From Candidatus Omnitrophota bacterium (lineage in GTDB: Bacteria; Omnitrophota; Gorgyraeia; Gorgyraeales; Gorgyraeaceae), in contig JAUYDX010000042.1 of NCBI GenBank assembly GCA_030691625.1, positions 463-64,462 on the forward strand: a DNA stretch of 64,000 nt, written 5' to 3'. The notes under the pieces were generated by a model. That model made no database searches, was not told where the DNA came from, and saw only the letters and a program-made list of their open reading frames with translations. Shown one piece after another: positions 3,001 through 27,000 of this stretch. Made by a program: the position numbers and the translations under genes. Position 1 is the first letter of the stretch; each line of letters begins with the position of its first letter.

Positions 3001-6000
3001 GGATACGGCTGGTTCTATGTGTCAAAAGAGGTGACTACATACCTTACCTGGAAAACAGTCAATACGGGCAGGACATATTCAGACGGAACGCCTGTAACAA
3101 ACGAGATGGTGACAAGCTCTGTCACAGACTTCTACGATGTTGTGGGAGGGCTTGAGATACTCACATCCAGGACAAAGACAGAGGTCATATTTGAGGGAAC
3201 AGGGCCTGACAAAAAGATATCTTACACGCAGGTTACTTATTATACCTGGATAGGCGGATCTTTTATTGAATCAGGCATGACAAGGACATACCAGGAATAC
3301 GATGAGCTTGGAGAGTACCGCAAAAAAATAGATACATTTGAAATAATCCCTGGTTCTGACCCATTGCTTATAAATACCCAGTTTGTAAAGGTGGCTCTGG
3401 AAGACATAAATCAGGATGGGAGGCTCGAATCTGTAACTACTGCCAGGACATTTGAGTTTGGCATAGAAACAGGGACGCAAAAGACATGGAATGAGATAGC
3501 TGTAATAAACGGGGAGCTTAGAAGGCTTACCAATGCGCTTAATTATGAGATACCGGGAAGCGACCTAGCCTCTACATTGTCTCTTACCTACAGGACAGTA
3601 GACCCTGAAAAAGGCCCTGTAACAGTCACTAATATTTATGATGTCCTGGGCTCGACTATACCTATATTTAATCTGCCTTATTTAGGCATACCAAGCTCTG
3701 TCATACACAGCTATAAGGCGCCTAATACGCCTGCCAATATAGCAGCTGGCCAGGCTCCTGTGGTGACAATAGTAAATAATTACATACAAATAACCCGCGA
3801 TCTTATTTTATTAGAGAACATGCAGAGGATATACAACATGGCTGTGCAGATAGCAGGCGGAGGCACCAGGTTCGGCCAGGTAGTGGAAAATTACATAGAC
3901 ATAAATTCCAATAATATCCTGGATAGCGATGATTTCCTCGAATACAAGACCTTCACATATTGGGATAAAGTCAAGAACAGGAAAGGCGAGGATGTGCCCG
4001 GTCAGGTTATAGAAACTATAATAGATGTAGCTGGTAAGGAGTTTATAGAGTCAGTAAAACATGTGTATAAAGAGCCGGGCACAATAGGCGGCAAGCCTGT
4101 AATCTTTACAATCACTGATTATTTTGAATCAGGCGTAAAGCTTTCCACGCAGGTATCCTGGAAGATCATTGAAACAATTCAGGACCCCAGATATCCCAAT
4201 GACCCTGCCAGGACTATTCAGAGGCTTGTTACAATAACAGAATTTTATGAATTAGAAACCAAGATTGCCACACAGAGGTCATGGAAAGAGGAGCAGGAAG
4301 TAAAGGTAACCATTAATGGCAGAGAACTTGTCATTAAGACAATGGTGACGATTACAGAGACAGAGGAATTCGATATCCTGACAGCCATACAAAAGGCGTA
4401 TAAATACGCTGAAAACGGGAAGCTCATCCAGGTCATTGAAAATTACGACCCTGTATTCAGCGAAGATGACCCTGTTTCCATCCAGAAAATATTTTATGAC
4501 AAGCGTATAATTTCAGATGATACAGAAAAGTTTGTAAAGGTTATTGAGACATACGAATTCGGCATAAAATCCCTTACCCAGTATATCTACTATGACGAGA
4601 AAGACACTACGCACGGAAGGCTAAAGGTCCAGGTGATTGAGAATAGATTAGAGATTGGCAGTGAAAACATTGTCCAGTCAATACAGTATGTTTACAGGTT
4701 TGAGGAGACAGTTGTCACAGACCTTGCTACAGGCGGGGAAGGCAAAAAACTGGTAAGCGTCATAGAGACCTATGAAGGCGCAGGCAAGGAATATTTCCTG
4801 ACCCAGGTCCAGTATGATTACAGCGTTAAAGGCAGGGATTCTGAAGATACCAGGGATGTTGTTAAAAGGGTCAGTATATATCTTGACCCTGTTTTAAAAG
4901 AGGGCAATGAATACAGCCTTATACCCATATCCCTGCAGGCCACGTGGAAGGAAAGGAGCGCTAAGGATCCGACCAAGATACTCACGTTTACAGACTTCTA
5001 TGAGATGTTAGAAGGCGGGAAACTTTTTAGCTTAAGCCGCCAGATATCTTCCAAGGCCAAGGAAAAGATAAATGGCATAGATACGCTTGTGACAATAACT
5101 GACATCTATGAATCAGGGGTAAAGACAGCCACACAGAAGACATGGAAGGAAACAAGGGATATAACCATAAAACAGGACGGCAAAGATATTATCGTAAAGG
5201 CCCTCCAGACAGTGACTGAAACAAGGGAATTTGACATAGAGATGCTTACCTCTATCCAGAAGTCATTCAGGTATATAGAGGAAGGAAAGCTCATCCAGCT
5301 CATTGAAAACTTTGACCCTGTGTTCAGCTCTACTGAAGCGATTTCCATCCAGAAGATATATTATGAGGAGCGCGAGATAGCTGATAAGACAAATAGGATT
5401 GTAAAGGTCATTGAGACATACGAATTCGGCATAAAAGACCCCACAGCTGTCCAGTATATTTATTTTGAAGAAAAAGACACCACTCACGGACGGCGCAGGG
5501 TCCAGGTAGTTGAGAATAGATTCATGGGTATTGTGCAGTCAATCCAGCATATTTACAAGCTGGTAGAGAAGGACCTGATAGTTGACCTTGCGCTAAAGAC
5601 AAAAGGCGATAAGCTCGTGACTGTCATAGAGACCCTGGAAGGCGCAGGAAGCGAGTTCTTCCTGACTCAGGTCCAGTGGGATTACTCAATCAATGGCAAG
5701 GATTCCAATAATAAGGATGTCATTAAGAGGGTCAGCTTATACTTTGAGCCTGGGCTTGACGAATATATCTCCATGCAGGTTACATGGAGAGAACAGGGGA
5801 GAAGAGGAGACAGGGTAGCTGAAACTGATGTGGCTTTGACCATAACAGAGACTTACGAGTTTGACACTAAAGTCTCTACTCAAGTTTCCTGGAAGGAAAA
5901 ATCTGCGCGCGTAATAGGCAACCGCATTGTGCCTACGCTGTTTACTATCACAGAGTTTTATGAGCTGGGCATAGTTGATGAGGCGCACAAGATCACTGTC

Positions 6001-9000
6001 CAGGCATCCTGGAGGCAGAAAGAGACAATAAACGGCAAAGAAACAGTCGCCAGTTATATTGATACCAGGGAATTCGGCATATTCACTTCTGGCCAGAAAA
6101 CCTGGAAAGAGGTCATAAACCTGACAGATGCAAGCAAAAATCCTTATAAGAGGATACAGACTGTAATAGAGACGCGGGAATTTGACATACTTACTTCAAC
6201 GCAGAAGATATATTATGATAATATCGAGACAGCTTATGGCAATAGATTGGCGAAAGTTGTTGATACCTATGAGTTAGGCCTAAAGGACCCGACCTCGACC
6301 CAGTATATCTATTATATCAGGAATGAAAATGTCTCTGGCTCTCCAACTACATTGATCCAGGTGATTGAAAACAGGATACGTATCGGCAGCGACAGCTTTA
6401 CTCAGTCTATCCAGTATGTGTATCATAAAAAAGAAAACGTGCCCCTGGATTCTGCTAATCCTGGCAGTCTTACCTCAAGGCTGGTCACTGTAATAAAGAC
6501 ATACGAAGGCGATTTCAGCCAGGGCGTTGATGAAAAAGGCCTGCTTAAAGGAGCGATTTTAACCCTTACCCAGTTTGATTACACTATTAAAGGCAGGGAT
6601 TCCAGCAATACAAGAGACGTTCTTAAAAAGGTCAGCCTGTATTTTGAACCAGGTATCAGCGAATTTGTTTCCATGCAGGTTACATGGAGAGAAAAAGGCC
6701 AGAGAGGCGGGAACGATGTTGTCCTTACAATAGCCAAGAATTACGAATTAGGAATTAAAGACCCTATTTCCACGCAGATTACATGGAAAGAGCCTGGCAA
6801 AAAGAATAATGTACCCACTTTACTTACAATCACAGAAACCTTTGAGCCGGGGATTGACCAGTATGTATCAAAACAGATTTCCTGGAAAGAAAAAGGCGTT
6901 AAGAAATTGGGCAATGTAAATACCGAGGTCCTGATTACCACCACTGAATACTATGAGATAGGCTTTAGTGATGCAATTTCTACCCAGAAAACCTGGAGAT
7001 ACACTGACTCTAATCTGACAAACCCGATTACAAATACCAGGTTTGGGAAAAATCTTCTTGTAACAGTAATTGAGAATTACGAACTTGGCACTGTAGGCGC
7101 GATCTCAACACAGTATGTTGTTAAAGATGGTAAATATACCTATATAGTTACATACGAACTCGGCATGGGAGATCAATGGACATCAGTTCAGAGGATCTCC
7201 AAAGAATTTAAGGATAATAAATTTGTCACTACCACCGACTACTTTGAGCCGGGCATATCTGACCCAGTCGCAACCCAGAAGACCTGGAAGGAGGTAAGAA
7301 CAGATGTCATTAACCCACTTACAGGAAAAGCCTTTGGAACTAAAAAGATTGTAACAGTGACCGAGAACTATGAATTAGGCATTGATAAGGCAGTCTCCAC
7401 CCAGAGAGTCTTTAAGGATGGCTTATTTACTTATGTAGCTACCTATGAAACAATCGCGGGCCTGGCAGAAGGCCAGTGGTCAAGCGTGCAGAAGATCTTC
7501 AGGCAGTATGACAAGACAAAAGACAAGATAGTGACCACTACGGAATATTATGAATTCGGAATAGTAGGCGCAGCTGTCTCCACCCAGAAAACGTGGAAAG
7601 ACATAGCGACTAAGAATGTAAAACCGGATGGCGCTAGCATCCTGGGCGGCATGGACTTCACAGGCAAGCTCGTCACAATCACCGAGAACTATGAATTAGG
7701 CATTGATAAACCTCTTATAACCCAGTATGTGGTAAAAGCTCTTCAAGGCAATGTCTTTAATACCTATATAATTACATACGAACTTGGCATCAGCGACAAG
7801 CAGTGGACAGGCATCCAGAGGATCTCCAGGGCATTTGAAGACAGGCAAACTAAAGGAAAGGTCCTTGTCACCACAACCGATTACTTTGAGCCAGGCATAT
7901 CTGACCCAGTAGCCACTCAGAAGACATGGAAGATGGTTGCAGAAAAAAGCACCGCAGATAAACTTAACGGCATTGAATTAAAAGGCAAGCTCGCCACAGT
8001 CACTGAAAACTATGAATTAGGAATCACTGAACCTCTTACAACCCAGTACACAGTAAGAGCCATCCAGGGAGGCATCCTTAATACCTATATAGCCACGTAT
8101 GAAACAGGCCTGGGAGACCAGTGGAGTTCCATACAGAGAATAACAAGAGACTATGACACTAAACTTAACAGGCTCGTCACCAAAACAGAATATTTTGAAC
8201 CGGGCATATCTGATCCAGTAACAACACAGGAGACTTGGAAGAGCGTAGCTGTCAAAGGCACACTGCTTCCTATGGGCGGAGACCTAACAGGCAAGCTCGT
8301 TACAATCACTAAAAACTACGAGCTTGGAATACAAGAGGCTGTATCCACCCAGTACGTAGTCAAGGCGCTTCAGGGAGATGTATTTAATACCTATATAGCC
8401 ACATATGAATTAGGCCTTGGGGAACAGTGGTCTTCCATACAAAGGATATCAAGGGCATTCACAGGCGGCAAAATAGTCACCACCACAGATTACTTTGAGC
8501 CGGGCATATCTGACCCAGTCGCAACCCAGAAGACATGGAAGATGGTGGCAAGCGAAAGCACTTCAGAAAAGCTTAACGGCATTGAATTAAAAGGCAAGCT
8601 CGCCACAGTCACTGAGAACTATGAATTAGGAATTGCCGAACCTATTACAACCCAGTACACAGTAAAGGCATTCCAGGATAATCTCATAACCACCTATATA
8701 GCCACGTATGAAATAGGCCTTGGAGACCAGTGGACATCAATACAGAAGATAACCAGAGACTATGACACTAAGCTTAATAGAATTGTCACCACCACAAAAT
8801 ACTTTGAGCCAGGCATAGAAGGCTATATAACCAGACAAGAAGCCTGGAAGAGTGTAGCTGTACAAGGCACAGTTCTTCCAATGGCTGGAGACCTCTCCGG
8901 CAAACTTGTAACAGTCACAAGGAACTTTGAGCGCGGCATAGAAGAGGCTGTATCTACCCAGTATGCGGTAAAGGCATACCAGGGAGGAGTCCTTAATACC

Positions 9001-12000
9001 TATATATCAACATATGAATTAGGCCTTGGAGACCAGTGGTCAACCATCCAGAAGATCTCAAGGGAATTCAAGGACAATAAGATAGTTACTACCACTACCT
9101 ATATAGAGCTTGACACTGTAACAAGCATCCAGGAATCCTGGAAGGAAGTAAATAAAGGAAGGATAGAGACCATAACAGACACCTATGAATTCGGCATAGG
9201 CTTTGACACCCGTAATGACCCGGCCAAGAGAATCACCTACGCCCTCACTCACCAGGTATCCTACAGGGAGATCACGGACAACAGGATCAGTACCACCATA
9301 GATACCTATGAATTAGGGGCTGATTTTATAAGCTCTACCCAGAAAATCTCCAAGCGCGATACAGGCACAAGGATCGAGACCGTAACCAACACATATGACC
9401 TCGGCAAGATCGAAGACTACGCCTGCACCCAGCAGATTGCCTGGAAACAATTAGAATCCGGCAAGCTCGTCACAATAATCGAGAACTACGAACTCGGCAA
9501 TATCTTCACCTTTAGCCAGAAGATCACTAAAGAGTATGTGAACGGAAGAGCTGAAACCACCACCACCTATTATGACATGGCGCATTACGAGGCCGGCAAG
9601 ATGAACGAGGCAATCGCCATTAAGCAGGTCTCCTGGAGGGAAAAAGACGGCGACAAGATAAAGACCGTAATAAAGACCATAGAGCTTGACACTGTGACAA
9701 GTATCCAGGAATCCTGGAAGGAAGTAAATAAAGGAAGGATTGAGACCATAACAGATACCTGGGACATGGGCTTAAAAGGCGAAAAATCCGCCCTCACTCA
9801 CCAGGTCTCTTTTAGGGAAATCACCGGTAATAGGATCACTACAACAATAGATACCTATGAATTAGGCGCTAGCTTTATAAGCTATACCCAGAAGATCTCC
9901 AAGCGCGATACAGGTAAAGCAATCGAGACTGTTACCAATACCTATGAACTCGGCAAGATCGAAGACTACGCATGCACCCAGCAGGTTGCCTGGAAACAGC
10001 TTGAAGGCACAAAGCTCGTTACAATAATCGAGAACTACGAACTCGGCAATATATTCACATCAAGCCAGAAGATAACAAAGGAATACGTAAACGGAAGGGC
10101 AGAGACCACTACCACCTATTATGACATGGCTCATTACGAGGCCGGCAAGATGAACGAGGCAATCGCCATAAAACAGGTATCCTGGAGGGAAAAAGACGGC
10201 TCAAGGATAAAGACCACCACCAAGACCATAGAGCTTGACACTGTAACAAGCATCCAGGAATCCTGGAAGGAAGTAAATAAAGGAAGGGTTGAGACCATAA
10301 CAGATACCTGGGACATGGGCTTAAAAGGCGAAAAATCCGCCCTCACTCACCAGGCCTCTTTCAGGGAAATCACCGGTAATAGAATCACTACCACAATAGA
10401 TACCTATGAATTAGGCTCCAGCTTTATAAGCTATACCCAGAAGATCTCCAAGCGCGATACAGGTAAAGCAATCGAGACCGTAACCAACACCTATGAACTC
10501 GGCAAGATCGAAGACTACGCATGCACCCAGCAGGTTGCCTGGAAACAGCTTGAAGGCACAAAACTCGTTACTTTTGTTGATACGTATGAACTTGGCAAGC
10601 ACCTGACACAGACTCAGAAGATATGGAAAGAAGCAGTAATAGACGCAACTGGAAAAGTGACAAGGGTTGACACAATCACGCTGTATTATGAGTTGGGATA
10701 CGAAAACGCATTTAATGTTGTTGAGCAAAGGTCATGGAAAGAGGTCTCAGATAGCGGCAGAATAGTTACTGTCATAGAGACAAAGGAAGCAGGGATAGTT
10801 ACAGGGATCCAGAAGTCATGGAAAGAGGAAAGGGATAATAACGGCCAGAAGGTAATAGCCACCATAACTGATTATTATGAATTAGGGTCTGACATCGCTT
10901 ACACAAGGCAGATTGCGTGGAAGGAGATAAGGGAAAGCAAATCATTAAGTGAATATACAGATTTAGGAAAGAAGATAGTGAGCGTTACTGAAACCTATGA
11001 AGGCATGCCAGGCTCCAGGGTCCTGATATCTACGCAATATTCCTTCAGGCATGCGCAAGATAATAAGATATATACCTATACATTGACAGAGGAATTTTCC
11101 GCCAGAATCCTTACCTCTATCCAGATATCCTACAAATATGATGACGCTAAAAAAGGCCTTGTAACTGTTATTGAAAACTACGAGCCGGGTATAAAGGATG
11201 CCAATGGGCTTATAAAGATTTCCTGGCAGGAGATATATTATGGCGCGCGGAAGACAATAGAGGGAGATAAGAGGGTAAAGGTAGTTGAGAACTATGAATT
11301 CGGCATCCAGGGACCAGCGCTTACGCAATATATCTACTACAGGGATTATAAGGATGCCCCAGGCGACGGCATAAGGATCCAGGTGGTAGAGAATATCATA
11401 AAGGTAGGGACTGGTGATTTTATCCAGTCAGTCCAGTATATCTACCGCAAATATGAGGATGTGCCTGATCTATCTGGCGGATTAAAGAATAAGCTCGTCA
11501 GTATAATAGAGACGTATGAAGGCGATCTTAGCCAGGGTTTTGACGCATCCAAAGGCCAGTTCAATGCCGCATTTCTCACCCAGACCCAGAAGGACTACAC
11601 TGTATTCCACGATGATAAGCTGAAGAGGATAAGCCTTTATTTTGAGCCAGGGCTTGAGCAGTATATATCCATGCAGGCCTTCTGGAGGGAACTTGGCAAG
11701 GATACCGCGGGAAGGGATACTGTCCACACTGTGGCAGATTCTTATGAATCTGGTATCCAGGATCCTATCAGCACCCAAAGGAGCTGGAAGGAACTGCTGG
11801 ATACAGAGGCATTAAGCGACTCTTATGTAAAGTTAGGCCAGAAGATCGTGAACATAACCCAGACTTATGAAGGCGCGCGAGGGTCAATGTCTCTAGTATC
11901 AACCCAGTATTCATTTAAAGACGTAAAGGATGATGTAGTTTATACCTATATATTAAATAAGGAGTTTGATGCCCAAATCCTTACATCAATCCAGAGGACG

Positions 12001-15000
12001 AATAAATACATAGACAAAGAAGGCCATCTTGTAACTGTTATTGAAAACTACGAGCCGGGTATAAAGGATGCCAATGGGCTTATACGCATTTCCTGGCAGG
12101 AGATATATTACGACAGGGTAGAAACAGTGGACGGCCAGAAGACCGTAAAGGTAATAGAGAATAATGAATACGGGATAAAAGGTTATACCTTAAAGCAGTT
12201 CATCTATTACGCTGAAAAAGACACAACAGGCGGCAAGAGGATAGTCCAGGTAACAGAGAATTACGAATATGGCATGCCAGTAGACAAGCCTCTCTCCATA
12301 ACATACAGTTACCACGATGTAAGGACCATAGCTAACGGGTCTGAAAAGCTTGTCCAGGTAACTGAAAATAAGATACTGGCAGGCGACGCTTATTTAATTG
12401 AATCAATAAATTATTCTTACCGCAAATCAGAAGATATATCCTTTGACACCAAGGCAGGACAGAAGACGAGGATGGTGACCGTAATAGAGACATATGAAGG
12501 GTTGTTTACCAGTGACGTAAATATCGCGACCAGTGAGCGTATGGCAGGGGCTGTGCTTACAGGCGTCCAGTGGGAATATTCCATTGTGGATGAGGGAAAG
12601 CTCAAAAATGTCACAGCGTATTTTGACCCTGGATTATTAGACAAGCCTACTGCGGTCCAGTATAAATATAAGGCAATGGAAGGGGATATCTTAAAGACCA
12701 TAATAGACACATACGAGAGCGGTGTTTATATTTCCCAGCAGAAGATATGGAAGGTAAAAGAAGGGTTTAAGGATGTCCTTACAGGCGAAGATCTGTCAAT
12801 GCGGTTAGTTACCTATATTGAGAATTATGAGCTGGGTACCCTTGTAAATACCCAGGAGACATGGAAGCAGATAGAGACCATAGGCGGCCAGCTTACCAGT
12901 GTAACATACACTGTTACGTATGAATTAGGGGATAAGGCAATGCCGCCTCTAATTGACAGGTCTTATAAGGTTAAAGACGCTAAATTGGGCATAGTGACTC
13001 TTATTGAGGCATATGAATATGGGATTAAAGACACCCCTTCATCTATTAAAAGGACATACTATGTTTCTATGGACGCGACTAACCTTACTGTAGAAGACAA
13101 TAAAGCTAGGACCGTAAAGGTCATAGAGACATATGAATATGATTTAGCGAAAAACATTGACCCGTCCAAGGCCAATAAGCTTTCCTCATTGCAGTATATC
13201 TACTGGGATGAGAGAGCCACGCATGACAGCGGGAATACAAAGCGCAGGGTCAAGGTAGTGGAGAATTTTATAAATATAGGCGAGCCCAAACCTATCAGGG
13301 ACAATACCCAGTATATCTTTAATAAGACTGAAAAGGTTGCGGGCGGGGAAGACAGGGTAATCCAGGTCATAGAAAATTATGTCCACTATGGAGCTGGCAA
13401 TGCTGACAAGTTTTTAGAGGCAATCCAGTATGTGCATAAGGAAAATATAAACGGCGTATTGGTTACTGTGATCCGCAATATGTTCAGCGCAGGAAGCGGG
13501 GTTTATCTTGATAATATCCAGCATATTTACAATATAAAGGAAGGGAATAGGCTGGTCCAGGTCACTGAAACCTATTTCTCAACAGGCAAGGTGGATTTTG
13601 ACAGCGTTACAAAAGACCAGACATGGACACAAGGCGAAGAGGTCCTGGATTATACCCAGTATATGCATAAAGAACTTATGGAAAAGCCGGGGGTTAAGGA
13701 TCCTGTTGTAGTCACTGTCATAAGGAATGTATATAAGGCCGGCGATACATTATTTGTCGAGAGCATCCAGCATATATACAAGGCTGAAATTACATCCAAA
13801 CTTGACGGGAAGCCCCATCTTACTACAGTTTTGGAAAATTATGTGGTTACAGGCGAAGAGACCATGCTTGATACCATACAATATATCTATAAGAAACTGG
13901 ACGGTGACACAATAAAGCAGGTTATTGAAAACTATGTAAGGATAGCTGGAAAAGATTACTTAGAGAATTACCAGTTTAGCTATTATGACAAGGTCCAGGT
14001 CAATACAGGCGGTGAAAGAGTTGCAAAGGTAATTGAGACGCATTTAATAATAGGCGATAAGGACTGGCTTGATACAAAGCAGTTCATCTATAACGACGTA
14101 AGAGGGGGCAAAGGCGTACAGGTTGTTGAAAATTACACCTATTACGGGGATATAAATAAGCCGGCTGTATTTTTAGCATCTGTCCAGTATATGTCCAACA
14201 CTGTTGAGGAGATTAACGGCGCAAAGCGGGCAGTGAGGGTGATAGATAGCTATGATGTTATTGGCTCGCAGGAACCTGGCAAATCTACATATATCCAGAC
14301 TACAAGGGATAAGGTTTACGCTGAATATAAGGACGCCGACAATGACGGGCGTAAGGAATTAGTAAGGACAACCATTTCTTATGACAGGATAGGATTGAAC
14401 GGACAGGATGCGTTTATAGCGTCTACAATGCGCGATACCTGGAAATTGATTATTAATGGAGAGGTGATTGAAAGGAGCGTGAATTACCAGTATGTGGTAG
14501 CGTCTACAGCAGGATGGGTAACCGGGACATCAGGCGACATGTCTAATAACATTAATAATAGCGCTGTACAGTTCTGTTACTCAATGGATGACAGGAAAAA
14601 AGAGATCCGCAATATAGACGGTAAAGCTACTCTCGCGCTTATAACCAGGTCTTATGAATATCTCGGCGCCTGGTACGATACGGATAACGCAGGAGGCGCA
14701 AGCCAGCGCATACTTATGGGAGAGCAGGTGTCTTACAGGGCGTTATTTACAGACGTAGATGGCAAAACCAGGGTGGCAACAATCATACTTTCATATGAAT
14801 TCTACAGCGATAAGGATAATGTAGACCTTAAACTTTTAACAGGCAGGAAGATCACATACGCGGAGTGGGACGCGGCTGAAAACAAATTAAAACAGGTGGA
14901 GATAACAGATGAGTTTGTGGATTTTTCATACCTTGGCATGGACCTGACAGGGTTAGACCCAAAGACAGTAAGGGAAATCCTGGATCTTGCGGCTATAGAA

Positions 15001-18000
15001 GCAGGCATTATGAATGATATAAACATTTTATTAAAGAGTATGGGAGAAGAGGCCTTGAGTTTTGACAGCCACTATACAGGCTATCTGCCTCAATCCAGAA
15101 AAGAAATAATGTCCTTATATGAAAATGGCTATAAGACAGGGGTTGAGGTCCGCGACATAAACATAGCAGAGTTCAATAAAGGCAATTACTATTACACCAG
15201 CCAGAAGATCAGGGATTTAAGGAATGCAAACGGAGTAAAGATAGGGTATTCCACAGAATACTTTAATAAATGGGGCGTAGAAACAGGCGTTCCTGAGTAT
15301 ACATCCAATACCGTGTTCCAGAGGGATGAAAATGGATATTTAACTGGCGAGGCAGTGCTTACGCATAAAGGCGGGGAATTTAAATACGAACATTCTACAT
15401 ACACCAGGGATGAATATGGCAGGATAAACGGCATGGATAAGCTGACAGTGGCAGGGCCTTTGTCAGAGAAGGATACGCCCGCGAGCGGCTATGACCACAG
15501 GAAGGTCAGCGTCTTGTTCGAGAAGATACATTATGTAAGAGACTCTATTACGCATATGAGGATAGGTGCTATCAGTGAAAAATGGCTAGACGGGAACTGG
15601 TATAAGCACAATAAGGATTCAAATGATTATATTGAACCCGACAGGGTGGCGATTAATGTTATTACAGACATCCAGGAAAAGTTTATTGATGGGAATTGGG
15701 TGGTAGTGAAGAACGCTGTTAATTTTGAATTTTCAAGCAGGGCACCTCCAGCTGCGATTCCGCATACAAAGGCCTCGCCTGACAATGAAGAGCCGCCAGA
15801 GCCGGAACTTCCTGAACAGCCTGAAATCACGCCAGTTTCCCTTGATGAGCTTTACAGTAAAGCGTTTGAAACGCTCCAGCCATTCCTTAATAACCCTGAA
15901 GAATTGAATGTCGGGTTTAAGATAGGCCAGTACACTGTCCTGAACTGGAGTTCTACAAAGATAACCATAGATAAGTTGACCGGCAGGGTGTATTCGGAAG
16001 AGACGGATGTCTATACTAATGACCTTGGCAGGCAGTGGTCCAGAAAAGACTATACCTATGAATTGTCGCAAAAGCAGAAAGATAAGGGCCTGACGCCTGC
16101 AGATTTTAAAGGCGAGGCTACAGGCTGGATCCAGTCTGGAAAGCGCGATGGCCTTTGCGTGAGCTTTAAGTTGGACGAAAACGGTTATACAGGGCTAAGG
16201 GTAGATCTCTATTATGACCCCATTACAGGATCGGTAACCGAACAGGATAGCTATGGCGGATACGGCAATTCAAAAGAAGGGACATGGGTTACCTATAAGA
16301 CAGAGTATTCTGACGGCCGTTCCAGTGACGGTACCGATGATGTAGAGGAATTTTTAAGGAATTCCGGATATTTAATAGCAGGTTCGGAGATAGAGACCAC
16401 GACCCAGAGTTACGAGGACACAGAGGACCAGGGAGGATATGCCAGAAACCAGACGCGCATCGAGTACCAGGTAAAGGTCAAGCAGGGCGTAAGTATCGGA
16501 GACGCGCTGGACCAGAAGAACCTGACCTATGATATTCTTGGCAGGATTACGTCAGGCGTATTCGCGACCTGGAACGACAAGAAAAGTAGATATGATATCA
16601 CCACTAAGACCAATATGCGGTATGACGCTTATGGCCGTCCCTTAAGCTATACTGAATATTCCACAATTGACGGCATCACATCCACAACAAATATCAAAGA
16701 TATCACTTATGACGCCTTTGGCCAGGAAATAAGCCGCTATATATCCGGAGAGTCAATAGACAGTAAGAATAAAAAAACCACCTTTAAAGGCACTATCACC
16801 AGCACCAATACCTACGACCCAGTAGGGCTTCTCAAGCAGAAGACCACAAGCGAGAACATCAAGTATGAACAGAAAAAATCCGGGTGGGGGCTGTTTGCTT
16901 TCTTTGGAGCAATATTCGCAGCAATATTTGCGGTCTTACTTGCGCCTTTCACAGGCGGTATGAGTTTATTGCTGCTTAAGGTCCTTTCTATAATGCTAAC
17001 AGTATCATTCTATGGTATGGCTACTATTGCTATAGCTAAAATTTGTGGCTGGGGCGGTTATGCAGTAGGCAGTATTTCAGAAAAGATTACTCAGTATAGC
17101 TATATTTTCAGTAAACTCGGCCGCACAGATACAGAAAAAGTCCTTAAGGATGTTCAGAAGGCCATATGGAATTTCTGGAGGGTTGCTGAGACTGTAAATA
17201 TTATAGCAGTGGGCATAATTGCTTCGATTATAAGTTTTGGAGTTTTAGGCCCTGCTATTGCAGGAGCTATGACTGCTCAAACTGCTGCTACAGCCGCGGT
17301 AGCAACTACAACTGCAGCAATATCTGGAAGCGTAGCTGCTTTAACTGCTGGTACAGTTGCGGGAGGCGTTGCCGCAGCCATGGCCGCGGGTTTCTCTGCT
17401 ATTGCAGCTGCCGCAGTAGCGCATTTAGCAGTTGTCACTTTTATCGCAGGCATGATTGCCACTGGCATAGCCGCAGTTGTATCAGGCGTTATTACAGCAT
17501 TCTTTGAGTTTATGCAAAATGATTTTAAGTCTTGGGCATTCGGATTAAGGGATTTCCTCATGTCTTTTGCAAGCGGCGTATTCAGCGCGGTATTTGAAGG
17601 AATAAGCCAGGCGCTTCAGTCGAGCTGGAGCGCAGGCGGCAAGGTAGCAAAGGTAATACATCAGATGAGAGATGCGTTCAGAACAGTAAGTCATTTAATG
17701 CCAGGCGCGCTTACAGGATTTACAATAGCGCTTCTTTATACCACTGTGAAATGGATAGCTACAGGTAAATTCGAATTTGATAATTTAGCGTATGGGATTA
17801 TGGCAGCAGGACTTTTTACAGATATACTGAGATGGGCGTTTAATATAGGGATGGGCCCAACAAAGTATGGCCCATTCAAAGAAGGCCTTTCTGTAAAAAG
17901 CGATTTTATCTATGACAAGATCTGGAAAAACCTGTCAGGCGCATTGAATAAAGTCTGGGAAGGATTCAAAAAGATCCTCAGCATTAGCCAGGAATATACT

Positions 18001-21000
18001 ATAGGCAATACCTATGACCAGCAGTTTGGCTTTGAGCTTGGCTTGAGCAGTTTTAAGCCTACAAAGACCGGATTTTTTGCAGGAATTAAAGAAAGGATGG
18101 CTTATTTAGCAAATTCTCCGTTCGTAGCGCACGATGCATTTGTTTTTGTCAGAAAGATAGTGCGCGGCTTTATAGAAATATTTGCAGCCAGTAAGCTCTC
18201 TGAGGCGCAGAGGGCAAAGCAGTCTAAAGAGTCGTCCGGCTCAAGGAGCACTGCGCCATGGATAGCTCTCTTAGGGTTTATTTCAATTGATGTGACCAAG
18301 CTTGATGTTGCAAGGAATATAGATAAGAATGGAAAGCCTATAGCGGATATTAAAAAAACCATAGAGATGGCGCCAGGCTTAAAAGTGCCTATCCTTAACA
18401 GCCTTACATACAGAAGCATGGATTTATTCGGAAGCCTGGGAAGACTGGTTATCCAGGTAGTAATGGCAAATGTGGCGATCCATAACCAGGAGAAGACAGC
18501 AGACGGGAGAGAAACCGGCAAGGAGAAGATCTGGGTTACCCTGATGAGGAATATAGTGGTAAATTCCTTTAATGTCATTGCCAGGATCGTGAATGTGGAA
18601 AGGACTGTCAGGGACAGGCTTGCCCAGGAAAACGGCTGGGTAGAAGGGGTTGATGGCTGTGAAATGGATATGGATAAAGAAGGCAACTGGGTGGCTACAA
18701 AGGACGGCCAGATGATCAAGTTTAACCCCACAGGCATGCTTATTATAGGAAGAGATATGTTTGGAATAGACAAGGATGGAAATCAGGTCCACATAGTAGA
18801 GAAGTTTATAAAAGCCGCTGAAATGAAAGGAAGGGAAGATAATTTTGAAGGATGTTACGGCGTGATAGTAAGAACTAAAAATGGGGATATTACTTATACC
18901 CCGATTGTAAAATTAGAAAATAAATTCCAATATCTTTCTGAGATTACACAAGAAGAGTATGAGAATAACCTGGCGTCATTCCATGTCACAAGCTATGCAG
19001 CCATGAATTTTGACGGGCTTTTAGGTCCTGGCACAAAGGATAAGATTGAAATTGAAGAGGCATTTGAGCTTATGCCTTCCGCTGATTTCAGCAATGAACC
19101 GGTCTATGTGTTTATAGTCATTGATAAAGATGGGAAAATAACAAAGCGCATGGAAGTATTTGACATGAGACTCAGAAGGCTTATGGAATATGAGTTTAAA
19201 TTAGACGCATTGCCGATGCTTACTTTCTATGGCAACTGGATGCCTTATGTAGGTAAAAATCTTACTACAGGTAAATTCGAGATTTTATATGAACGCGACA
19301 GCTTTACGGTTTTTGGCAATAATTCCGCGATTAAAGCCCATAGAAATGCTGACGGGACTATAACAAAGATTCTTTATGCGCTGGAAGGCGGAAAATTTAT
19401 TCAAAACGGTAATCCAGAAACCTTAAGGCCTGATTATGCGATAACGCTTGAGCTGCCAAAGGTGTTCATAGGAACACCTTTCTTTCCAAAAAGCGAAACC
19501 GGGGAAGAAAAGGAAACTAAGCAGCCTGCCGGAAAATTGTTGCAGCTTCCAGGGAAGTTTTTTGGCGAGGAAGGCAGCGTGAAAGCTGTTATAACAGATG
19601 AATCCGCAGCTATGATTAAATTCAGATACGAGATTGGCGGAAAGATATATGAAGGTGTCATAACAGCTATAGAGGAAGGGAAGGGAGGGATTGAGCGTTC
19701 AAGGATAGAAGAAATAACCAGTATTGACATGGCAAAGATAGAGATCATAACAGATACAGGCAAAGCCATATTTTATAAAATCGGAGACCAGACTTTCAGT
19801 GAAAACGAATATAAGATATTTAAGGATTCCGCAGTTAAAATGAACCTGGATTTCAAGCTGTGCCTGGAGCTTGTAAAGCTATTTAACATTGATCCGAAGG
19901 ATTTATTTAAAGATCAAGGGGTAAACGCAGATAAAAAGATTATCGGAGCGCTAAAGGCGTTATTAGAAATTTCAGCAGGCAGGGCGCCGCCTCTAGCAGT
20001 AGAGAAGATCTCAGCTTTTATAGATAAAATAAATAAAGGAGAAATAAAAGTAAAATACCTTACAGATTCCCCTGAAAATTCAGGCGTCCTCGCCAGATTT
20101 AACCCGGAAACAAATGAACTCTCCATAGCAGGGCTAAATACCTCAGATAAAGACATGGCAGTCCTGTTCGGCCTTGTCATATTCCACGAACTCACAGGCC
20201 ATCTGGAATTTACAAAAGCCACAGGCTTAAAGGCTGTAGATACGCTAAGCGTGTTTATTAACGAAATCGCGGCCTGGATGAGTACACTTGACATATTCGG
20301 CATAGATAACCTTAGCGGTATATTAAAGGAAAAGATAAAGGACGCGAAAGGCATTGCGCTAGTCATAAAGGCGCAGTTTGAGGCATTGATAGACGCTGTA
20401 AAATCCGGGACATTGCCAAAGAAAATATTTGAGGCATATGGTTTTGACAAGGCGCTTGGAAAGTCCTTTGAGAATATCAAATTTGAAGTCCTGGCAAAGC
20501 TAAAAGAGATATCCCCTCTTACTAAGGGCACTATATTCGAATCAGCTGTTAGTAAGCTTATAGGTATGCTGTCGCTGTCTCTGGCGCCTGTTGTAATACC
20601 CAGGCAGTCTATTGATTCAAGAGGCAGGGTAGTTGAAACGACCTACATGATATCCGGCGGCGCGCCAGGCACCATAGAATCCATCTCTGTCAGGTATTCC
20701 TACCGCGGGGATACCAATGTGCTTGATTACATGGAAGGCAGGCTCCCCATCGCAGACGGCATGTTCGCAGACAGGTCTATAAAGGTATATTGTGACAGCC
20801 ATGGCATGCTTGACTGGAAAACCGCGATATTCACAGATACAAATGAAAAAGCGGAATTGATATTAGCGACAAACACAGAAGGGAAAAAGTTTATATTTGA
20901 CACAATTTCAGGCAATTTGTTCGGGTTAGATATTATAGATACCTTAAAAGGAGAAAACCGTTTATCCGCGAGTTTCTCTATTAAAGACATTGACACCAAA

Positions 21001-24000
21001 AATGGTAAAGATGCATTTTATAAGGCAATAATAGGACATTATGCAAATATAGCCGAAGAGCTCAGAAAAGACAGTTATTATAAAGGACCGGTTATAACAG
21101 AGGAAAATTGGGGTAGCCAGTTCAGAGCTGTAAATATCGCAGCTGCAATGAAATCCATAGCCGAACTTAGAGCCAAGGCTTACCATGAAACTGCCGACGC
21201 CTTACTCGTAAAAGCAGAGACCTTAGTACAAAAAGGCCAGTGGAGAGAAGCGCTCGGCGATATATTCACAGCCCAGGCAAATGTCGTTGCTGAAAACTGG
21301 GCAAAGACAACAACTAAAGATGGAAAGACCATATGGCTAGCAAATAACGGCAATATTGAAACTATCGGCAAGCTTTATATAACAACCCAGATAGCCGAGC
21401 TTAGAGCCAAGGCTTACCATGAAACTGCCGACGCCTTACTCGTAAAAGCAGAGGCCTTAGTAGCAAAAGGCCAGTGGAGAGAAGCGCTCGGAGATATATT
21501 CACAGCCCAGACAAATGTCGTTGCTGAAAACTGGGCAAAGAAAGAGGCGAAGTGGGATTCTTACAAAGGCTCTATACTCGACAAAGTAGAGCAGGCAGGC
21601 TTGGACTACGGAAAGTATCTGTTAGGCATAGCAAATAAAGAGATAACCGAAGCAAAAGGAAAAGGTATCACTATAGAAAGCTTTGATCCTTCAAAGATTA
21701 CACTCACAAAAGACAACTGGAGAGAAATGCTCAGCACTATCTCTACAGGCCTGACAAATATATCTGTAGAAATGTGGGCAAAGACTACAAATACCAAAGA
21801 TGGGAAGATGACAATATGGACAACTAATAACGGGAATACTGAAACTATCGGCGCTCTTTACGCAACCCATCTCATAGCTGATATCAGGAGCAAGCCTAAC
21901 CATGAGAGCGCAAATACCCTTCTTGCAAAGGCAGAAGGCCTGATAGCTAAAGGCCAGTGGAGAGAAGCGCTCGGCGATATATATGAGGCGCAAGCAAAGA
22001 TATTTAATGTCCGAGTTGTAAACGGCAGGGAGTTTGCATTTGTGAAAGAGAATGGAGTGGAGAATCTGGGAAATGGCAATATGAAAGTTACTCTTATGGA
22101 CGGAACAGAGTATTTTGTTGATAAGGGCGGAAATATCTACAGGAGAGTAACGCGTTCCAGAGAAGTTGATATAGAAAAGACAATAGCGGAACAGGGTGAA
22201 TTCAAAGATATAAAAGAAGGTAATTCAGTTAAGACAGTGTTTATCTCAGGAGCGCGCGTAACTATAACAAAAAGCGATCCAAGAAACCATGAGCTGGCAT
22301 TTCAGGTAAACCTTCTCAAGGTAGAAACAATCCACGATGGCTTACTAGTATCTATGACAGAAAATGGCATAGATGAAAAAGGCAAGAGTATAAATAAGAG
22401 AGTTAAATATGAAAACGAGGCTATGTATTTTGACGGCAAGTCTTATGTCCTCAGTATAGGCAAATCGAGCGAGGGTTATATAGATTCAATAGGTCAATAT
22501 GAAGCTTCCTCTTCGGGCGAATATAAGCTTATAAATTTTGCCCAGCTGCCAGAAGGAACACACGTTAAACAGGTTAATTACAACTTATTCAAAGAAACAA
22601 AGAGTATGCCAGACCACTTTGACCCTGCTACGCAAAAATGCATAGAGAAAGATGTGATTTTTGTAAGACTTACCTTAACTAATTCTTCCGGCACAGAAAT
22701 AAGCGGGGTTTCTTATGACAGTTACGCATACGCGGATAACGCCGAGTATCATCTAAGCACTTCTATACAGCGTATACGCATGCCCAGCGGAGATCCTACT
22801 ATACCTAATTATGTTACCACAGAAGAAGTTTTAAGCCGCTCGTCCTCATTATACGATGGCTCTGGCGCGCTTATTTATACAGGATCTATAGACAGAGATG
22901 GGAAAATAGAACAGGTTACTGATTTTACCAGCATAGATGGCAGATTGGTGCAGAAAGAGACAGTAAACATAGTGGATAGCAAGGTTCATAAAGGAACATT
23001 CACTTGGGAAAAAGATTGGGACGGTTATAAATCCACAATGGAAATGATAACCGAGGAAAATTTAGGGGATACAAAAAAGACTATTACGGTAAAGGAAATA
23101 ACTTATTATGATAGCACGTTTTCAAATATTCCAGGGACTGGTTCTACTGTATTTACAGATGGCAAAAAAGAATGGGCTGTAGAAGAATCAACTACTAAAT
23201 CCTGGGGCTGGTTTACACCATTTCTATCAGTGGGAACTAAAATAAGATCTGTATACTACAATTGGGTAGCTGGTCAGACAGAGATTGACGATGGCTTTGG
23301 TAATAAGATTCAGGCTTCAGAAACATACCTAGACTATTTAATGGATAATAAATTACAAAGCCTTGCTAATGCAAAACTGTCAGAGGGTTTTCTTAGATAT
23401 ACAAGAGAGGAGATTAATGAAACAAAACCCTGGGTCAGATTAGGGCTTGAGCTAGGTATGTCAGCTACGGTAGGTTTTTTAGATGGCATCACTCTGCCCA
23501 TATCCTTCATCTTAGATCCTATCGGCACAGGAAAAGGTTTTGTGGATATGGTTAAGACATTGAATATTCAGCTGCGCGATGATTTTATCTGGACAGTAGG
23601 GTCTTTTATAGGTTTTGGAAAAGGCATGAAGGCTTTACACATATTACCTGAGTTATTCAAAACAGGAGACGTAGCAAAGTCAGGTGCGCTTGAACTGTTG
23701 AAAAAATCAGGATCTTCAGATGTTGCAATATCAAAGCTTAATTTAGGATTTAGCGCTAAGTTATGGATGAAATATGGCAAATACATAGAATATGCGCCTG
23801 AAGCTGCAGGAAGGTTTATTATGAGCCAGGTTTCTACAGTGGTAGGGATGGGTTTTATGTTTGGCATTTCCTATCTACTGGGTACGGTTTTTGGCTCAAC
23901 AAGCGAATATCTTGGATTAGGGAGAGATTTTGGAGAAGGTTTGGGAGGATTAATAGGGTTCTTTGCGCCAGGCGCTATAATGAAAATAGCAGTGGAAACC

Positions 24001-27000
24001 ATTAAAGCCAGGGCAGAACAAAAACAGATAGTATCAGTGGAGTCTGTACAGACAAGTATTATCGCTAAAACTTATTTAGGCATTGAGTTAAGCCCAGGGG
24101 AAGAGATATTTTTAGAAAGGTATTCAAACGATAGCCAGGTTAGATCTAAGATAGACGCAACTACATGGGGAGATATTTTTAGAAAGGTAGCTACAGGAAA
24201 GGATAGGTTAAGCCTTCAGGAATTAGGAAGAGTAGAAAAGCTAGCGTCTGATTTTGTAGATTTAGTCTATTTAAATCCAGGAGAGATTGCGAAACTGTCA
24301 GAGGGAGATTTTAATAAATGGGCTTCGTACAGAGAGATAGATATTGCTAATCCAGCTAAAGCAGCTGATCTTGTAGGGGCATATCTAACCAGAGGAGATA
24401 TTAAATCTGCCATAGAAATCGCAGAAACTACAGCAGACAGCGCTTTGAAAAATAGTTTATATGATACTATAAGTAGTAATATCATGGAATCCATTAGAAA
24501 TAGTGACATTAATGGAGCCAGGGATCTTAAGATAAAGGTCCTGACCAGTATAACCTTTGAAGCTGAGAAAGGATGGGAACAGGATCCATTGGTAACAAGA
24601 TTACAAGGATTTGACATAGACCTTGGAGAAACCTTACGAGAGGGCATAAAGACACAGACTCTTTCTGTGACAACAGATGACTCTAGAATTTGTACGGTCT
24701 CTAATTCTAAATATGGCGCAATAACAGTTAACAAACCAGGGCAGCGTTCAACCGTAAATCCAGATATTATTGAAGCGGCTCAGCCTCCAGATGCAAAAAC
24801 GAAATATAGGTATAATTATGAAACGACTGTCACAACTATAGTAAGGAATATAGCTACGGGTGAAGTAAAAGATATAAAAGAGACAGTGCTGATTGGGTCT
24901 AATAGACGCCTTACTGATGTAGCAATAGAGCAAAAAGCGAGAAACGAAGCGCCTCAGGCATTAAAATTAAGAGAAGATAATGCGAGATTGCTTGAAGCCA
25001 AAAGGTCATGGATTCATTATGAAACGCTCGGGATAACAAGAGAGATATCAGCAATCGGAAGCGCCACAGAGCGCGAGGCTATAGCTACTATAGGGATAGA
25101 TAAACTCAAGGTATTGATAGCAGAAGAAAAGAATAAGCCTGATTCGGCTCAGAAAATCTTTAATCTTATTGCTCTGCACATGGAAGAGAATGCTATAGCT
25201 TATGAGTCAAAATATGGCAAGGCATGGAAGTATCAACCAGCGCAGTATATTGACGCGATCGAGAATTTATATGCGTTAGAAAAAGGTTTTAGATCAGAAG
25301 AAGGAAAAGTCAGGGAGGCTTTTGGGTTATCCTGCGCAGGAGGCAAGACAGCTGCCCAGGCAGCAGCTATAGCCACTTTTAGCGACTTATATCCTGATGC
25401 GAAGGTAATATTTGTCACCACGTCCAAGAATATTAAATCCATGAGGGAGAATATAAGCATCGGCGACAGAGTTAATTACATAGCTGACGAGAAGATATCT
25501 CAGGTAGAAAAAGGCATAAACATAGTTAATTACAGGACCCTGCAGGAATTAGGCATTAGCCAGAAACTGAAGGGCGCGCAGATAGTAGCTGATGAAATAC
25601 AGGCAGGACTGGCTGAGTCTGACCTGGTGCGCAGTATGGGCAAGGACCTTTATAAAAAACTTCCAGTATGGGAGAGGTCCAGGATTGACAGGGAGTTGAG
25701 GCTGTATCAGGAGGTATATAATGTTGTAAGCAGTTATTTAGATGCAGTGAAATCTAAAAATCCTTATTTTGATGGAATACTACGCGATGGGCCTGAGCGA
25801 TGGACTATGGAAAAGAATAATATATTCGAGAGGTTTAAAAATACGCCTGAATGGAAAAAGATGGTTGAGAGAATGGGAGAAACAGACTTTAATGATATGG
25901 TAAACAGCGCTGCAACAGCTTATATGATAGATACAGCTAATGGAAGCGGAGGTTATTACCTGACGCTTAGAGATGGCACTTATGCTTCCACAACTGAGGT
26001 AAACGGCTTGTATAAGATAAGGGCAGGGGATGAAACAAGCGGCTATAAAGATATGGGCTACAGGTTTGTGGAGAAAAAAGATATTACAGGATACTGCGTC
26101 GCTAATAGAGAAGCGGACCCGTTGCCTAATACCAAATTTGGCGGGAACATGGATGGCAGGCCGAGCAAATTAGGCGTGATGGTTGGGATAAAGCATAATC
26201 TTGATATGGATGTTTTAAGGGATTCTTACCTGGATATTATTACAGACCGTACAAATATTATTGGAGCAATAAAACAGGCGCATAGCACGATTGTAAATAC
26301 AGGCACGCTTCAAGGGTGCGAGCCAAGCCTCAGGGGACTCGGGTTTAAAATAACATATTTTGACCAGGAAAGGACTTTGGATTATTTAAAAGAGAGTGGA
26401 AATGTTGATATAAAGGTAGTGTCTGAAAAAGGCAACAGAAGTTTAATAGATATTATAAAAAGTAAATATGCAGAGCAGGAGAGGGCCTTATTGTTAGGAG
26501 TCACTGATAATAATGTTTCTAACCTTGTAAGGCTTATTGATGAATTAAAGCCTGTAAAAGAAAATGGCAAATATTATGTAACTTTTGACGGTAAAAAAAT
26601 AGAATTGATTTTTATATTAGACGACGCTAATTATAAACGACTGGAAGACGCTATACGGACTGAAGCAGAAAGCTCAGATGGCGTGAAAAACAGGATTATT
26701 ATAGGGACTTTTGCAGAAGGCGTAAATACGTGGGCTAGTGTTAAATTAAAAGGCTCTCAGGAACCGGCTTTCAGCGGCTTTGTGATAAAGTTGAATATGT
26801 CCAGCATTGATAATGTGGCTCAGACATTCCAGCGCGTTGCGCTTACAAAAGATATGATAGAGGGAGACCAGAGGGTAGCTGGTAAGGCGCTATGGTATCT
26901 CAATACGGAGAATTTAAAACTCTCATCAGAGGAGAGGGCGATATTGCTAGAAGCGTTTAACTCTCACGATCAGAAGAAAATAGAATCCGCAGTACAATAT

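Follow-up and report, generated by a model that had tools for sequence, protein, structure and literature searches.

A giant open reading frame and its internal junction

The stretch of DNA analysed here, called the window throughout, comprises 64,000 nucleotides (nt) of contig JAUYDX010000042.1 (assembly GCA_030691625.1, positions 463 to 64,462). All of it is occupied by one open reading frame (ORF): frame 1 of the + strand, 21,333 codons long, has 0 stops, against 662 to 1,943 in each of the other five. It follows that the window lies inside a single gene longer than 64 kb. A program-made list of ORFs contained none of at least 150 amino acids (aa) on the + strand, because the frame 1 ORF has no ends inside the window. 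Both GC skew and AT skew are positive across the whole window. An earlier note on this DNA had flagged nt 15380-17830 (aa 5127-5943 of the translation) as a stretch of YD/Rhs-like repeats followed by a hydrophobic Ala/Gly/Thr-rich membrane segment; the context that it missed is that the whole window is one stop-free frame. The frame continues for more than 15,000 aa past the flagged stretch, which is almost certainly an internal junction within a giant protein of the Omnitrophota type, of at least 21,333 aa. The reading that we favour, with some reserve, is that at this junction a long ribbon of β-hairpins, lying on the cytoplasmic side, is pinned to the membrane by an anchor of four spans.

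Giant Omnitrophota proteins have been described as having numerous transmembrane (TM) regions and antiparallel 'beta helix filaments' that were likened to Rhs repeats (West-Roberts et al. 2023, bioRxiv 10.1101/2023.11.21.568195), and long Omnitrophota proteins have TM helices or a signal peptide in 94% of cases (Nielsen and Lui 2026, bioRxiv 10.64898/2026.06.07.730766). The window protein shares the main features of this class. Its length of at least 21,333 codons is well beyond the 10,000 aa that mark such giants; about 28 segments of TM grade on the Kyte-Doolittle and Hessa scales are distributed over 9 clusters, eight of which are downstream of the junction; and a long β-hairpin region is predicted, from a 1,179-aa AlphaFold2 (AF2) model together with a repeat array of about 3,600 aa. 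The arrangement that had been called unusual, of hydrophobic sequence directly after the repeats, is explained by this context of an ORF in which more than 15,000 aa and another eight TM clusters still follow. It is the ordinary architecture of a known, if poorly understood, class of giant membrane-anchored proteins, and the window sequence is a Pfam-dark addition to this class as described in 2023 and 2026.

Table 1 Features of the window, with the evidence on which each was delimited
Feature	Window position (nt)	Residues (aa)	Strand	Evidence or remark
Single uninterrupted ORF	1..64000		+	Frame 1, open at both window ends; giant-gene fragment
Tandem repeat array	3430..14217	1144-4739	+	Self-BLAST, jackhmmer, alignment A5
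Non-repetitive β-hairpin module with YYDPITG (nt 16213-16233)	14218..16875	4740-5625	+	Homologue collinearity, AF2
Pro/Glu-rich linker	15700-15830	~5250-5277		Within the β module; modelled as disordered
YD-like stretch, four hairpins at ~30-aa spacing	16513..16836	5505-5612	+	Motif scan, alignment A6
First helical hairpin, TM1 and TM2	16885..17043	5629-5650 and 5654-5681	+	Kyte-Doolittle, Hessa, AF2, conservation
Conserved K/R-rich TM2-TM3 loop	17059..17166	5687-5722	+	AF2 β-hairpin, homologue alignment
Second helical hairpin, TM3 and TM4	17182..17514	5728-5752 and 5807-5838	+	Hessa, alignment, AF2
Conserved helical region after the anchor, amphipathic helices and TGKFEFD motif	17515..18750		+	Homologue alignment, AF2
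Trypsin_2 peptidase domain	34030-34467	~11344-11489		Pfam
RelA/SpoT-type nucleotidyltransferase domain	60622-61005	~20208-20335		Pfam
PRK/uridine-kinase-like match	~63691-63927			Marginal

The predicted β-hairpin ribbon

The array upstream of the junction contains 41 copies or part-copies, as detected with a hidden Markov model (HMM), of a unit of about 100 aa, with pairwise identities of 23-75%. Each unit consists of three hairpin sub-repeats of about 32 aa, with the consensus KLVTVTENYELGxxxxxSTQ. The final 290 aa of the array were modelled by AF2 as regular antiparallel hairpins, with a predicted local distance difference test score (pLDDT) of about 75-90. The array is much shorter in the orthologue P0005, so the copy number differs among lineages. 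Further local duplications are found at aa 7027-7334 (48-60% identity), 13980-14826 (about 31%) and 19099-19597 (about 25%).

The array is followed by a module of about 890 aa that is kept in all homologues and is collinear with P0001, P0003, P0004, P0005 and P0009. The flagged region was searched for internal paralogues within the window protein and none was found. In the AF2 model of aa 4450-5628 there are about 60 long antiparallel strands and a few short helical inserts (mean pLDDT 65, predicted template modelling score (pTM) 0.44), and in the model of aa 5101-6000 residues 5310-5620 are all hairpins, at pLDDT 80-90. The Pro/Glu-rich linker (APPAAIPHTKASPDNEEPPEPELPEQPEITP) that lies within the module is missing from the homologues, and forms a second lineage-specific insertion besides the one in the hydrophobic cluster.

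The possibility that the YD-like stretch consists of diverged copies of the array was rejected: the array HMM scores no more than 5 bits on aa 4740-5640, and hhalign gave a probability of 0.2% for alignment A6 against alignment A5. As far as sequence comparison can tell, the stretch has no detectable homology to the TENYELG array and shares with it the hairpin pattern only. We propose that about 4,500 of the at least 5,628 residues upstream of the membrane would form a single long antiparallel hairpin ribbon, made up of the TENYELG array and the unique module, and that the final hairpins of this ribbon would bear YD-type turns.

The YD-like motifs and the relationship to Rhs proteins

All of the peptides quoted in the earlier note, both YD-like and hydrophobic, were found where it had placed them, in frame 1 of the + strand. 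LYYDPITGSV is at aa 5403-5412 (nt 16207-16236), and the four hairpin motifs of the YD-like stretch are NLTYDILGR (aa 5510), MRYDAYGRP (aa 5541), ITYDAFGQE (aa 5570) and NTYDPVGLL (aa 5605), the corresponding peptides being LTYDILGRIT (nt 16522-16551), RYDAYGRPLSY (16618-16650), ITYDAFGQEIS (16702-16734) and TYDPVGLL (16810-16833). The hydrophobic peptides GAIFAAIFAVLLAPF and TAQTAATAAV... are at nt 16906-16950 and 17272-17391. The window protein has 18 matches to [YF]DxxG against about 8 expected, one YYDPxxG against 0.005 expected, and two DPxGL against 0.24 expected. Four [YF]DxxG motifs fall within 100 aa, and the maximum reached in 6,000 shuffles (3,000 of the whole protein and 3,000 of the local module) was three. 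The cluster of motifs is not due to chance, and the homologues keep YYDPxxG and three of the four hairpin motifs.

The resemblance to Rhs proteins was examined with profiles, motifs and structure comparison. A Pfam scan in 1,000-aa tiles gave no family match in the flagged region. With short queries only, PF05593 (RHS_repeat) reached 21.0-21.4 bits against a cut-off of 22, on one repeat (MRYDAYGRPLSYTEYS, aa ~5536-5551); among 7 homologues, one scored 12.9 bits and six had no match. TIGR01643 (YD_repeat_2x) scored 15.0 bits against a cut-off of 15.8. TIGR03696 (Rhs_assc_core) gave no match at E≤10 to long or short pieces of the window sequence and 4 homologues, the YYDP region included. A profile of the YD-like stretch, run against solved structures, retrieved no chain from an Rhs, Tc or teneurin protein (E≤10), and profiles of the module gave only noise against the solved-structure sequence library. 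The motif DPVGL, which has the DPxGL form expected for aspartyl autoproteolysis and suggested as a check in the earlier note, is present yet not kept: the homologues have YDEKTGL, YYSTGEL, YFDDGIL or YDEKGLL at this site. No second Asp motif, paired motif or PxxxxDPxGL was found in the window.

Structurally, the nearest neighbours are nonetheless the YD shells. A first Foldseek search of the PDB gave seven matches at E≤0.001, all of them to YD-shell proteins (the 8qja Rhs core at 3.6e-9, teneurin-2 and YenB/RHS2). In a second search 8qja was found at 2.8e-13 and teneurin-2 at 1.1e-8, with generic β-propellers and barrels at 1e-6 or above, so that 8qja is seven orders of magnitude ahead of the first generic all-β match. 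The template modelling scores (TM-scores) to Rhs shells are only 0.05-0.15, with a root mean square deviation (rmsd) of about 30 Å. What is shared with Rhs proteins is thus the local geometry of hairpin repeats, which falls short of demonstrating a closed cocoon. The claim of YD/Rhs-like repeats accordingly stands as regards local fold, in the AF2 hairpins and the Foldseek matches, and fails as regards family membership.

The earlier note was also right that no typical toxin tip follows the repeats. What follows is a hydrophobic cluster conserved in the homologues, and then more than 15,000 in-frame residues. No separate downstream gene, such as an immunity gene, is present within the window, and no PAAR or VgrG family was found by Pfam at E≤0.01 in aa 1-5600, the gene N-terminus being outside the window. 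On profiles, unconserved motif and genomic context, an Rhs toxin cassette was rejected, and with high confidence the flagged stretch is not one. The YD-like hairpins would instead form a filament or scaffold rather than a cocoon round a C-terminal toxin. We note that YD-like repeats also brought P0010 and P0011, which are unrelated large proteins, into the results of the exhaustive profile search described below; neither has a Pfam RHS match.

The hydrophobic cluster

On the Kyte-Doolittle scale all of aa 5627-5838 appears hydrophobic. Of the 111 residues from aa 5728 to 5838, 35 are Ala and only 3 are charged or His. The Hessa sums are -2.6 kcal/mol for aa 5630-5648, +0.4 for aa 5661-5679, +0.55 for aa 5731-5749 and -0.9 for aa 5809-5827. 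The hydrophobic part probably consists of four TM helices in two hairpins. TM1 and TM2 (Kyte-Doolittle 19-aa means 2.56 and 1.94) are separated by a TGG turn, and TM1 is preceded by a conserved KKSGW; in the AF2 model the two helices, which have low pLDDT, occupy residues 529-550 and 556-581. The loop between TM2 and TM3 is the best-conserved part of the cluster (KIT..Y.....GRT..EKVLKD.Q.A.W.FWR), and is modelled as two β-strands at model residues 587-604 and 607-622, with pLDDT 74-87.

At the turn between TM3 and TM4 there is an Ala/Thr/Gly-rich insertion of 54-65 aa (aa ~5753-5822, nt ~17257-17466). It is unique to the window sequence in comparison with nine homologous fragments, most of which have a tight PLGPLG-type turn. 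The Hessa values for the Ala/Thr/Gly-rich part (aa 5747-5790) are +3.4 to +7.6 kcal/mol, and so it is not of TM grade. No nucleotide tandem repeat was found behind the Ala/Thr-rich stretch. AF2 draws the insertion as lengthened arms of the TM3-TM4 hairpin, in the form of two helices of 52-60 aa at pLDDT 32-51. The 65 Ala/Thr/Gly-rich residues read as a lineage-specific lengthening of this hairpin, adding no extra anchor helices and no toxin. A hydrophobic membrane segment was thus correctly recognised, in that four segments are of TM grade, but its Ala/Thr/Gly-rich part is not one of them. The homologues align up to window aa ~6250, so that the conserved module also takes in the helical region after the anchor, for which AF2 gives helices of low pLDDT.

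Which side of the membrane holds the ribbon

The Lys and Arg residues around the four helices are unevenly distributed: 4 in the N-terminal flank, 0 in the TM1-TM2 turn, 7 in the TM2-TM3 loop (aa 5682-5727), 0 in the TM3-TM4 insertion and 2 in the C-terminal flank. This makes 13 on the side of the ribbon against 0 on the opposite side, and the homologue alignment shows the same pattern. Aa 1-5628 contain no segment of TM grade, and neither do the 3,975 upstream aa of P0005, an orthologue, or the ORFs of locus L003 that are collinear with the window.

An even number of spans means that the chain exits the membrane on the side from which it entered; four spans in two hairpins would thus put the ribbon on one face together with the conserved β-hairpin and the helices downstream. 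According to the positive-inside rule, loops rich in Lys and Arg stay in the cytoplasm. From the count of 13 against 0, we therefore infer that the ribbon is on the cytoplasmic face, a placement to which the evidence inclines slightly. The two helical hairpins, grouped round the one conserved β-hairpin, would pin the end of the ribbon to the cytoplasmic membrane, and past this anchor the chain would go on into more soluble segments and the eight further TM clusters. We suggest, tentatively, that each hydrophobic cluster could be an even-numbered helical 'staple' that needs no chain translocation, making the protein an intracellular membrane-tethered scaffold that bears enzymes (a RelA/SpoT-like synthetase and a kinase). 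For the other eight clusters the crude scale counts TM segments too imprecisely for their parity to be used.

Alternative explanations

Several points weigh against the picture of a ribbon pinned to the cytoplasmic face. The TM calls were made from Kyte-Doolittle 19-aa means and from the Hessa scale applied as crude, position-independent 19-aa sums. The AF2 models were built from just 10 sequences, with mean pLDDT 65 and pTM 0.44-0.55 (pLDDT is below 50 in the TM part), and the shape of the ribbon and the packing of its hairpins are predicted only. The gene N-terminus lies beyond the window, where a signal peptide may be encoded. The same junction could therefore have the reverse topology, with the ribbon exported as a surface filament for attachment to prey or host and the hydrophobic cluster acting as a stop-transfer anchor. 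This is a possible reading, though we find it a good deal less persuasive. The YD shells of Rhs, teneurin and Tc proteins are themselves extracellular or secreted. Most recognisable domains of giants of this type are predicted to be extracellular, and adhesion and cell-wall attack have been proposed for them, with genes resembling a type II secretion system (T2SS) nearby (West-Roberts et al. 2023); a signal peptide together with TM helices is found in 39% of long Omnitrophota proteins (Nielsen and Lui 2026). For the 'TM-only' class of long Omnitrophota proteins, on the other hand, a mostly cytoplasmic location is predicted (Nielsen and Lui 2026), and both papers call their own topology calls unreliable or unvalidated. 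What speaks against an exported filament here is the distribution of Lys and Arg, including the conserved KKSGW ahead of TM1, the even number of TM-grade helices, and the fact that export of more than 5,600 aa is undocumented.

The other alternatives concern the nature of the sequence itself. A true Rhs/YD cocoon, cleaved by aspartyl autoproteolysis at DPVGL and encapsulating or releasing the hydrophobic segment as a pore-forming toxin, would account for the nearest structural neighbours (Rhs, teneurin and TcB/TcC shells), for the near-threshold scores of the YD-repeat profiles, and for YYDPITG and DPVGL, which look like Rhs core motifs and are commoner than composition predicts. It is nevertheless very improbable, given the missing Rhs_assc_core in the window sequence and 4 homologues, the failure of the YD-stretch profile to find a solved Rhs structure, the unconserved DPxGL with neither a second Asp motif nor PxxxxDPxGL, TM-scores of at most 0.15, and a frame that runs on for another 15,000 aa; moreover conservation is as high in the hydrophobic region as in the β part, and so the region is not polymorphic. 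That the hydrophobic stretch lies outside the membrane, as an Ala-rich low-complexity or helical linker of a soluble giant protein, is suggested by the positive insertion energy of its Ala/Thr/Gly part, by the pLDDT below 50 and by the tendency of the Kyte-Doolittle scale to over-rate Ala. We consider this improbable, since the four segments outside the insertion are of TM grade on both scales, they stay hydrophobic with charge-free turns in all homologues, and eight more such clusters follow downstream. The idea that the gene is an artefact, whether a misassembled repeat region or a decaying pseudogene, draws on the in-frame stops (two in locus L001, one in L005) and frame changes (L003) of homologous loci and on the database relatives, all of which are contig-end fragments. 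Set against 21,333 stop-free codons, 27-48% protein identity across the module among independent metagenome-assembled genomes (MAGs) and a flagged region that is not repetitive, it is scarcely credible.

Relatives

Among 5.8 billion proteins, a word-indexed search retrieved 3 relatives; an exhaustive profile search of 1.84 billion representative proteins retrieved 11, of which eight have E<1e-30. All of the relatives are singleton, contig-truncated MAG fragments that are collinear with the window, and the module and the anchor are kept together in 9 fragments, at 27-48% identity. No close relatives of the window were found in the genome and metagenome contig collections. The relatives are labelled Omnitrophica or Omnitrophota (P0003, P0006, P0009), Desantisbacteria (P0002, P0004, P0007), Actinobacteria (P0005) and Patescibacteria (P0008). 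An identical stretch of 17 aa (FSQTNLGDSLDQKNLTY) is shared by P0003 (labelled Omnitrophota) at its C-terminus and P0002 (labelled Desantisbacteria) at its N-terminus, where the two overlap; they look like neighbouring fragments of one gene that were binned to different phyla, and taxonomic labels in this family are therefore unreliable. P0004 (MEK9148666.1) is labelled 'MFS transporter, partial' at NCBI. The analysis gave no match to an MFS family, and it is probably the TM cluster that prompted the name.

Two MAG loci have in-frame stops within open, conserved frames, at nt 3994 (TAG) and 9106 (TAA) of L001 and at nt 5341 (TAA) of L005. The alignment to the window passes straight over these stops; sequencing errors and decay are candidate explanations for them, as are real segmentation and read-through. 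In L003, from an Omnitrophota MAG, the collinear region (nt 9-10013) is spread over three frames, and two Peptidase_C39 domains (E 1e-9 and 3e-9) are found upstream of the array. At the collinear position in the window (aa ~790-910) there is no Cys and no Pfam match to C39.

The remainder of the window

Pfam matches that exceed their threshold are confined, within the window, to Trypsin_2, RelA_SpoT, DUF3316 (26.4 bits against 24.4) and a PRK-like domain (22.9 against 22). The clear enzyme domains are limited to the trypsin-like peptidase and the RelA/SpoT-type synthetase. The peptidase domain (E 1.9e-12) is located between the TM clusters at aa 11034-11240 and 11559-11960. Among solved structures, the RelA/SpoT-type domain (Pfam E 2.3e-17) is nearest to synthetase domains from long RelA proteins (E 3e-11), and the marginal PRK/uridine-kinase-like match is about 900 aa downstream of it. 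The RelA/SpoT-like and kinase-like domains need nucleotides, and it can therefore be argued that at least those parts face the cytoplasm. Within the 21,333-aa window, which is a gene fragment, Pfam found no SecA_DEAD, C39, dockerin/TSP3 or glycosyltransferase set.

Significance and comparison with known systems

The functions of giant bacterial genes are for the most part still dark matter. The window gives 64 kb without a break from a family of which public data otherwise contain just 11 contig-end fragments. What is new here is the anatomy of one ribbon-to-membrane junction, in which an Rhs-like hairpin filament appears to be joined to the membrane by two helical hairpins round a conserved β-hairpin, together with a testable prediction of its topology. 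The side predicted from the charge distribution bears on the hypothesis that giant proteins serve in adhesion or predation. Omnitrophota giants and YD-repeat structures are usually taken to be surface adhesins or toxin devices, and an intracellular scaffold, if that is what the protein is, would contrast with this view. There is also a caution for annotation: YD-like motifs are here no marker of a polymorphic toxin, and the TM cluster has probably already given rise to the name 'MFS transporter'.

The window protein resembles the Omnitrophota giants in its ORF of tens of kilobases, its TM clusters at about one per 400-800 aa, its very low Pfam content, its long antiparallel hairpin regions and its tandem-repeat scaffold architecture. 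The resemblance extends to relatives from Omnitrophica-labelled MAGs and to the homologous locus L003 with C39 upstream. It differs in that its domain set, taken from a gene fragment, fits neither the 'Archaeovorin' nor the 'Dockerin-type' class, and in that the TENYELG repeat unit and the combination of module and anchor form a tiny family of their own, with 11 matches in 1.84 billion.

With the Rhs, TcB-TcC and teneurin shells (PF05593, TIGR01643, TIGR03696; PDB 8qja, 4igl, 5kis, 9g42) it shares antiparallel hairpins and YDxxG(R) turns. In the PDB these shells are the best Foldseek neighbours of both AF2 models, and one window repeat comes within 1 bit of both curated cut-offs. Unlike them, it has no above-threshold repeat, Rhs-associated core, conserved DPxGL, toxin tip or immunity gene; its hairpins are spaced at about 30 aa rather than about 21, its global TM-score is at most 0.15, and its ribbon is several times longer and is followed by TM hairpins and 15,000 residues. 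Teneurins, which are type II TM proteins, and class I prePAAR Rhs effectors combine YD-type hairpins with 1-2 TM helices that are N-terminal to the shell. The window protein is like these in having YD-type hairpins and hydrophobic helices in one polypeptide, with the difference that here four TM-grade helices are found C-terminal to the ribbon, where they flank a conserved β-hairpin.

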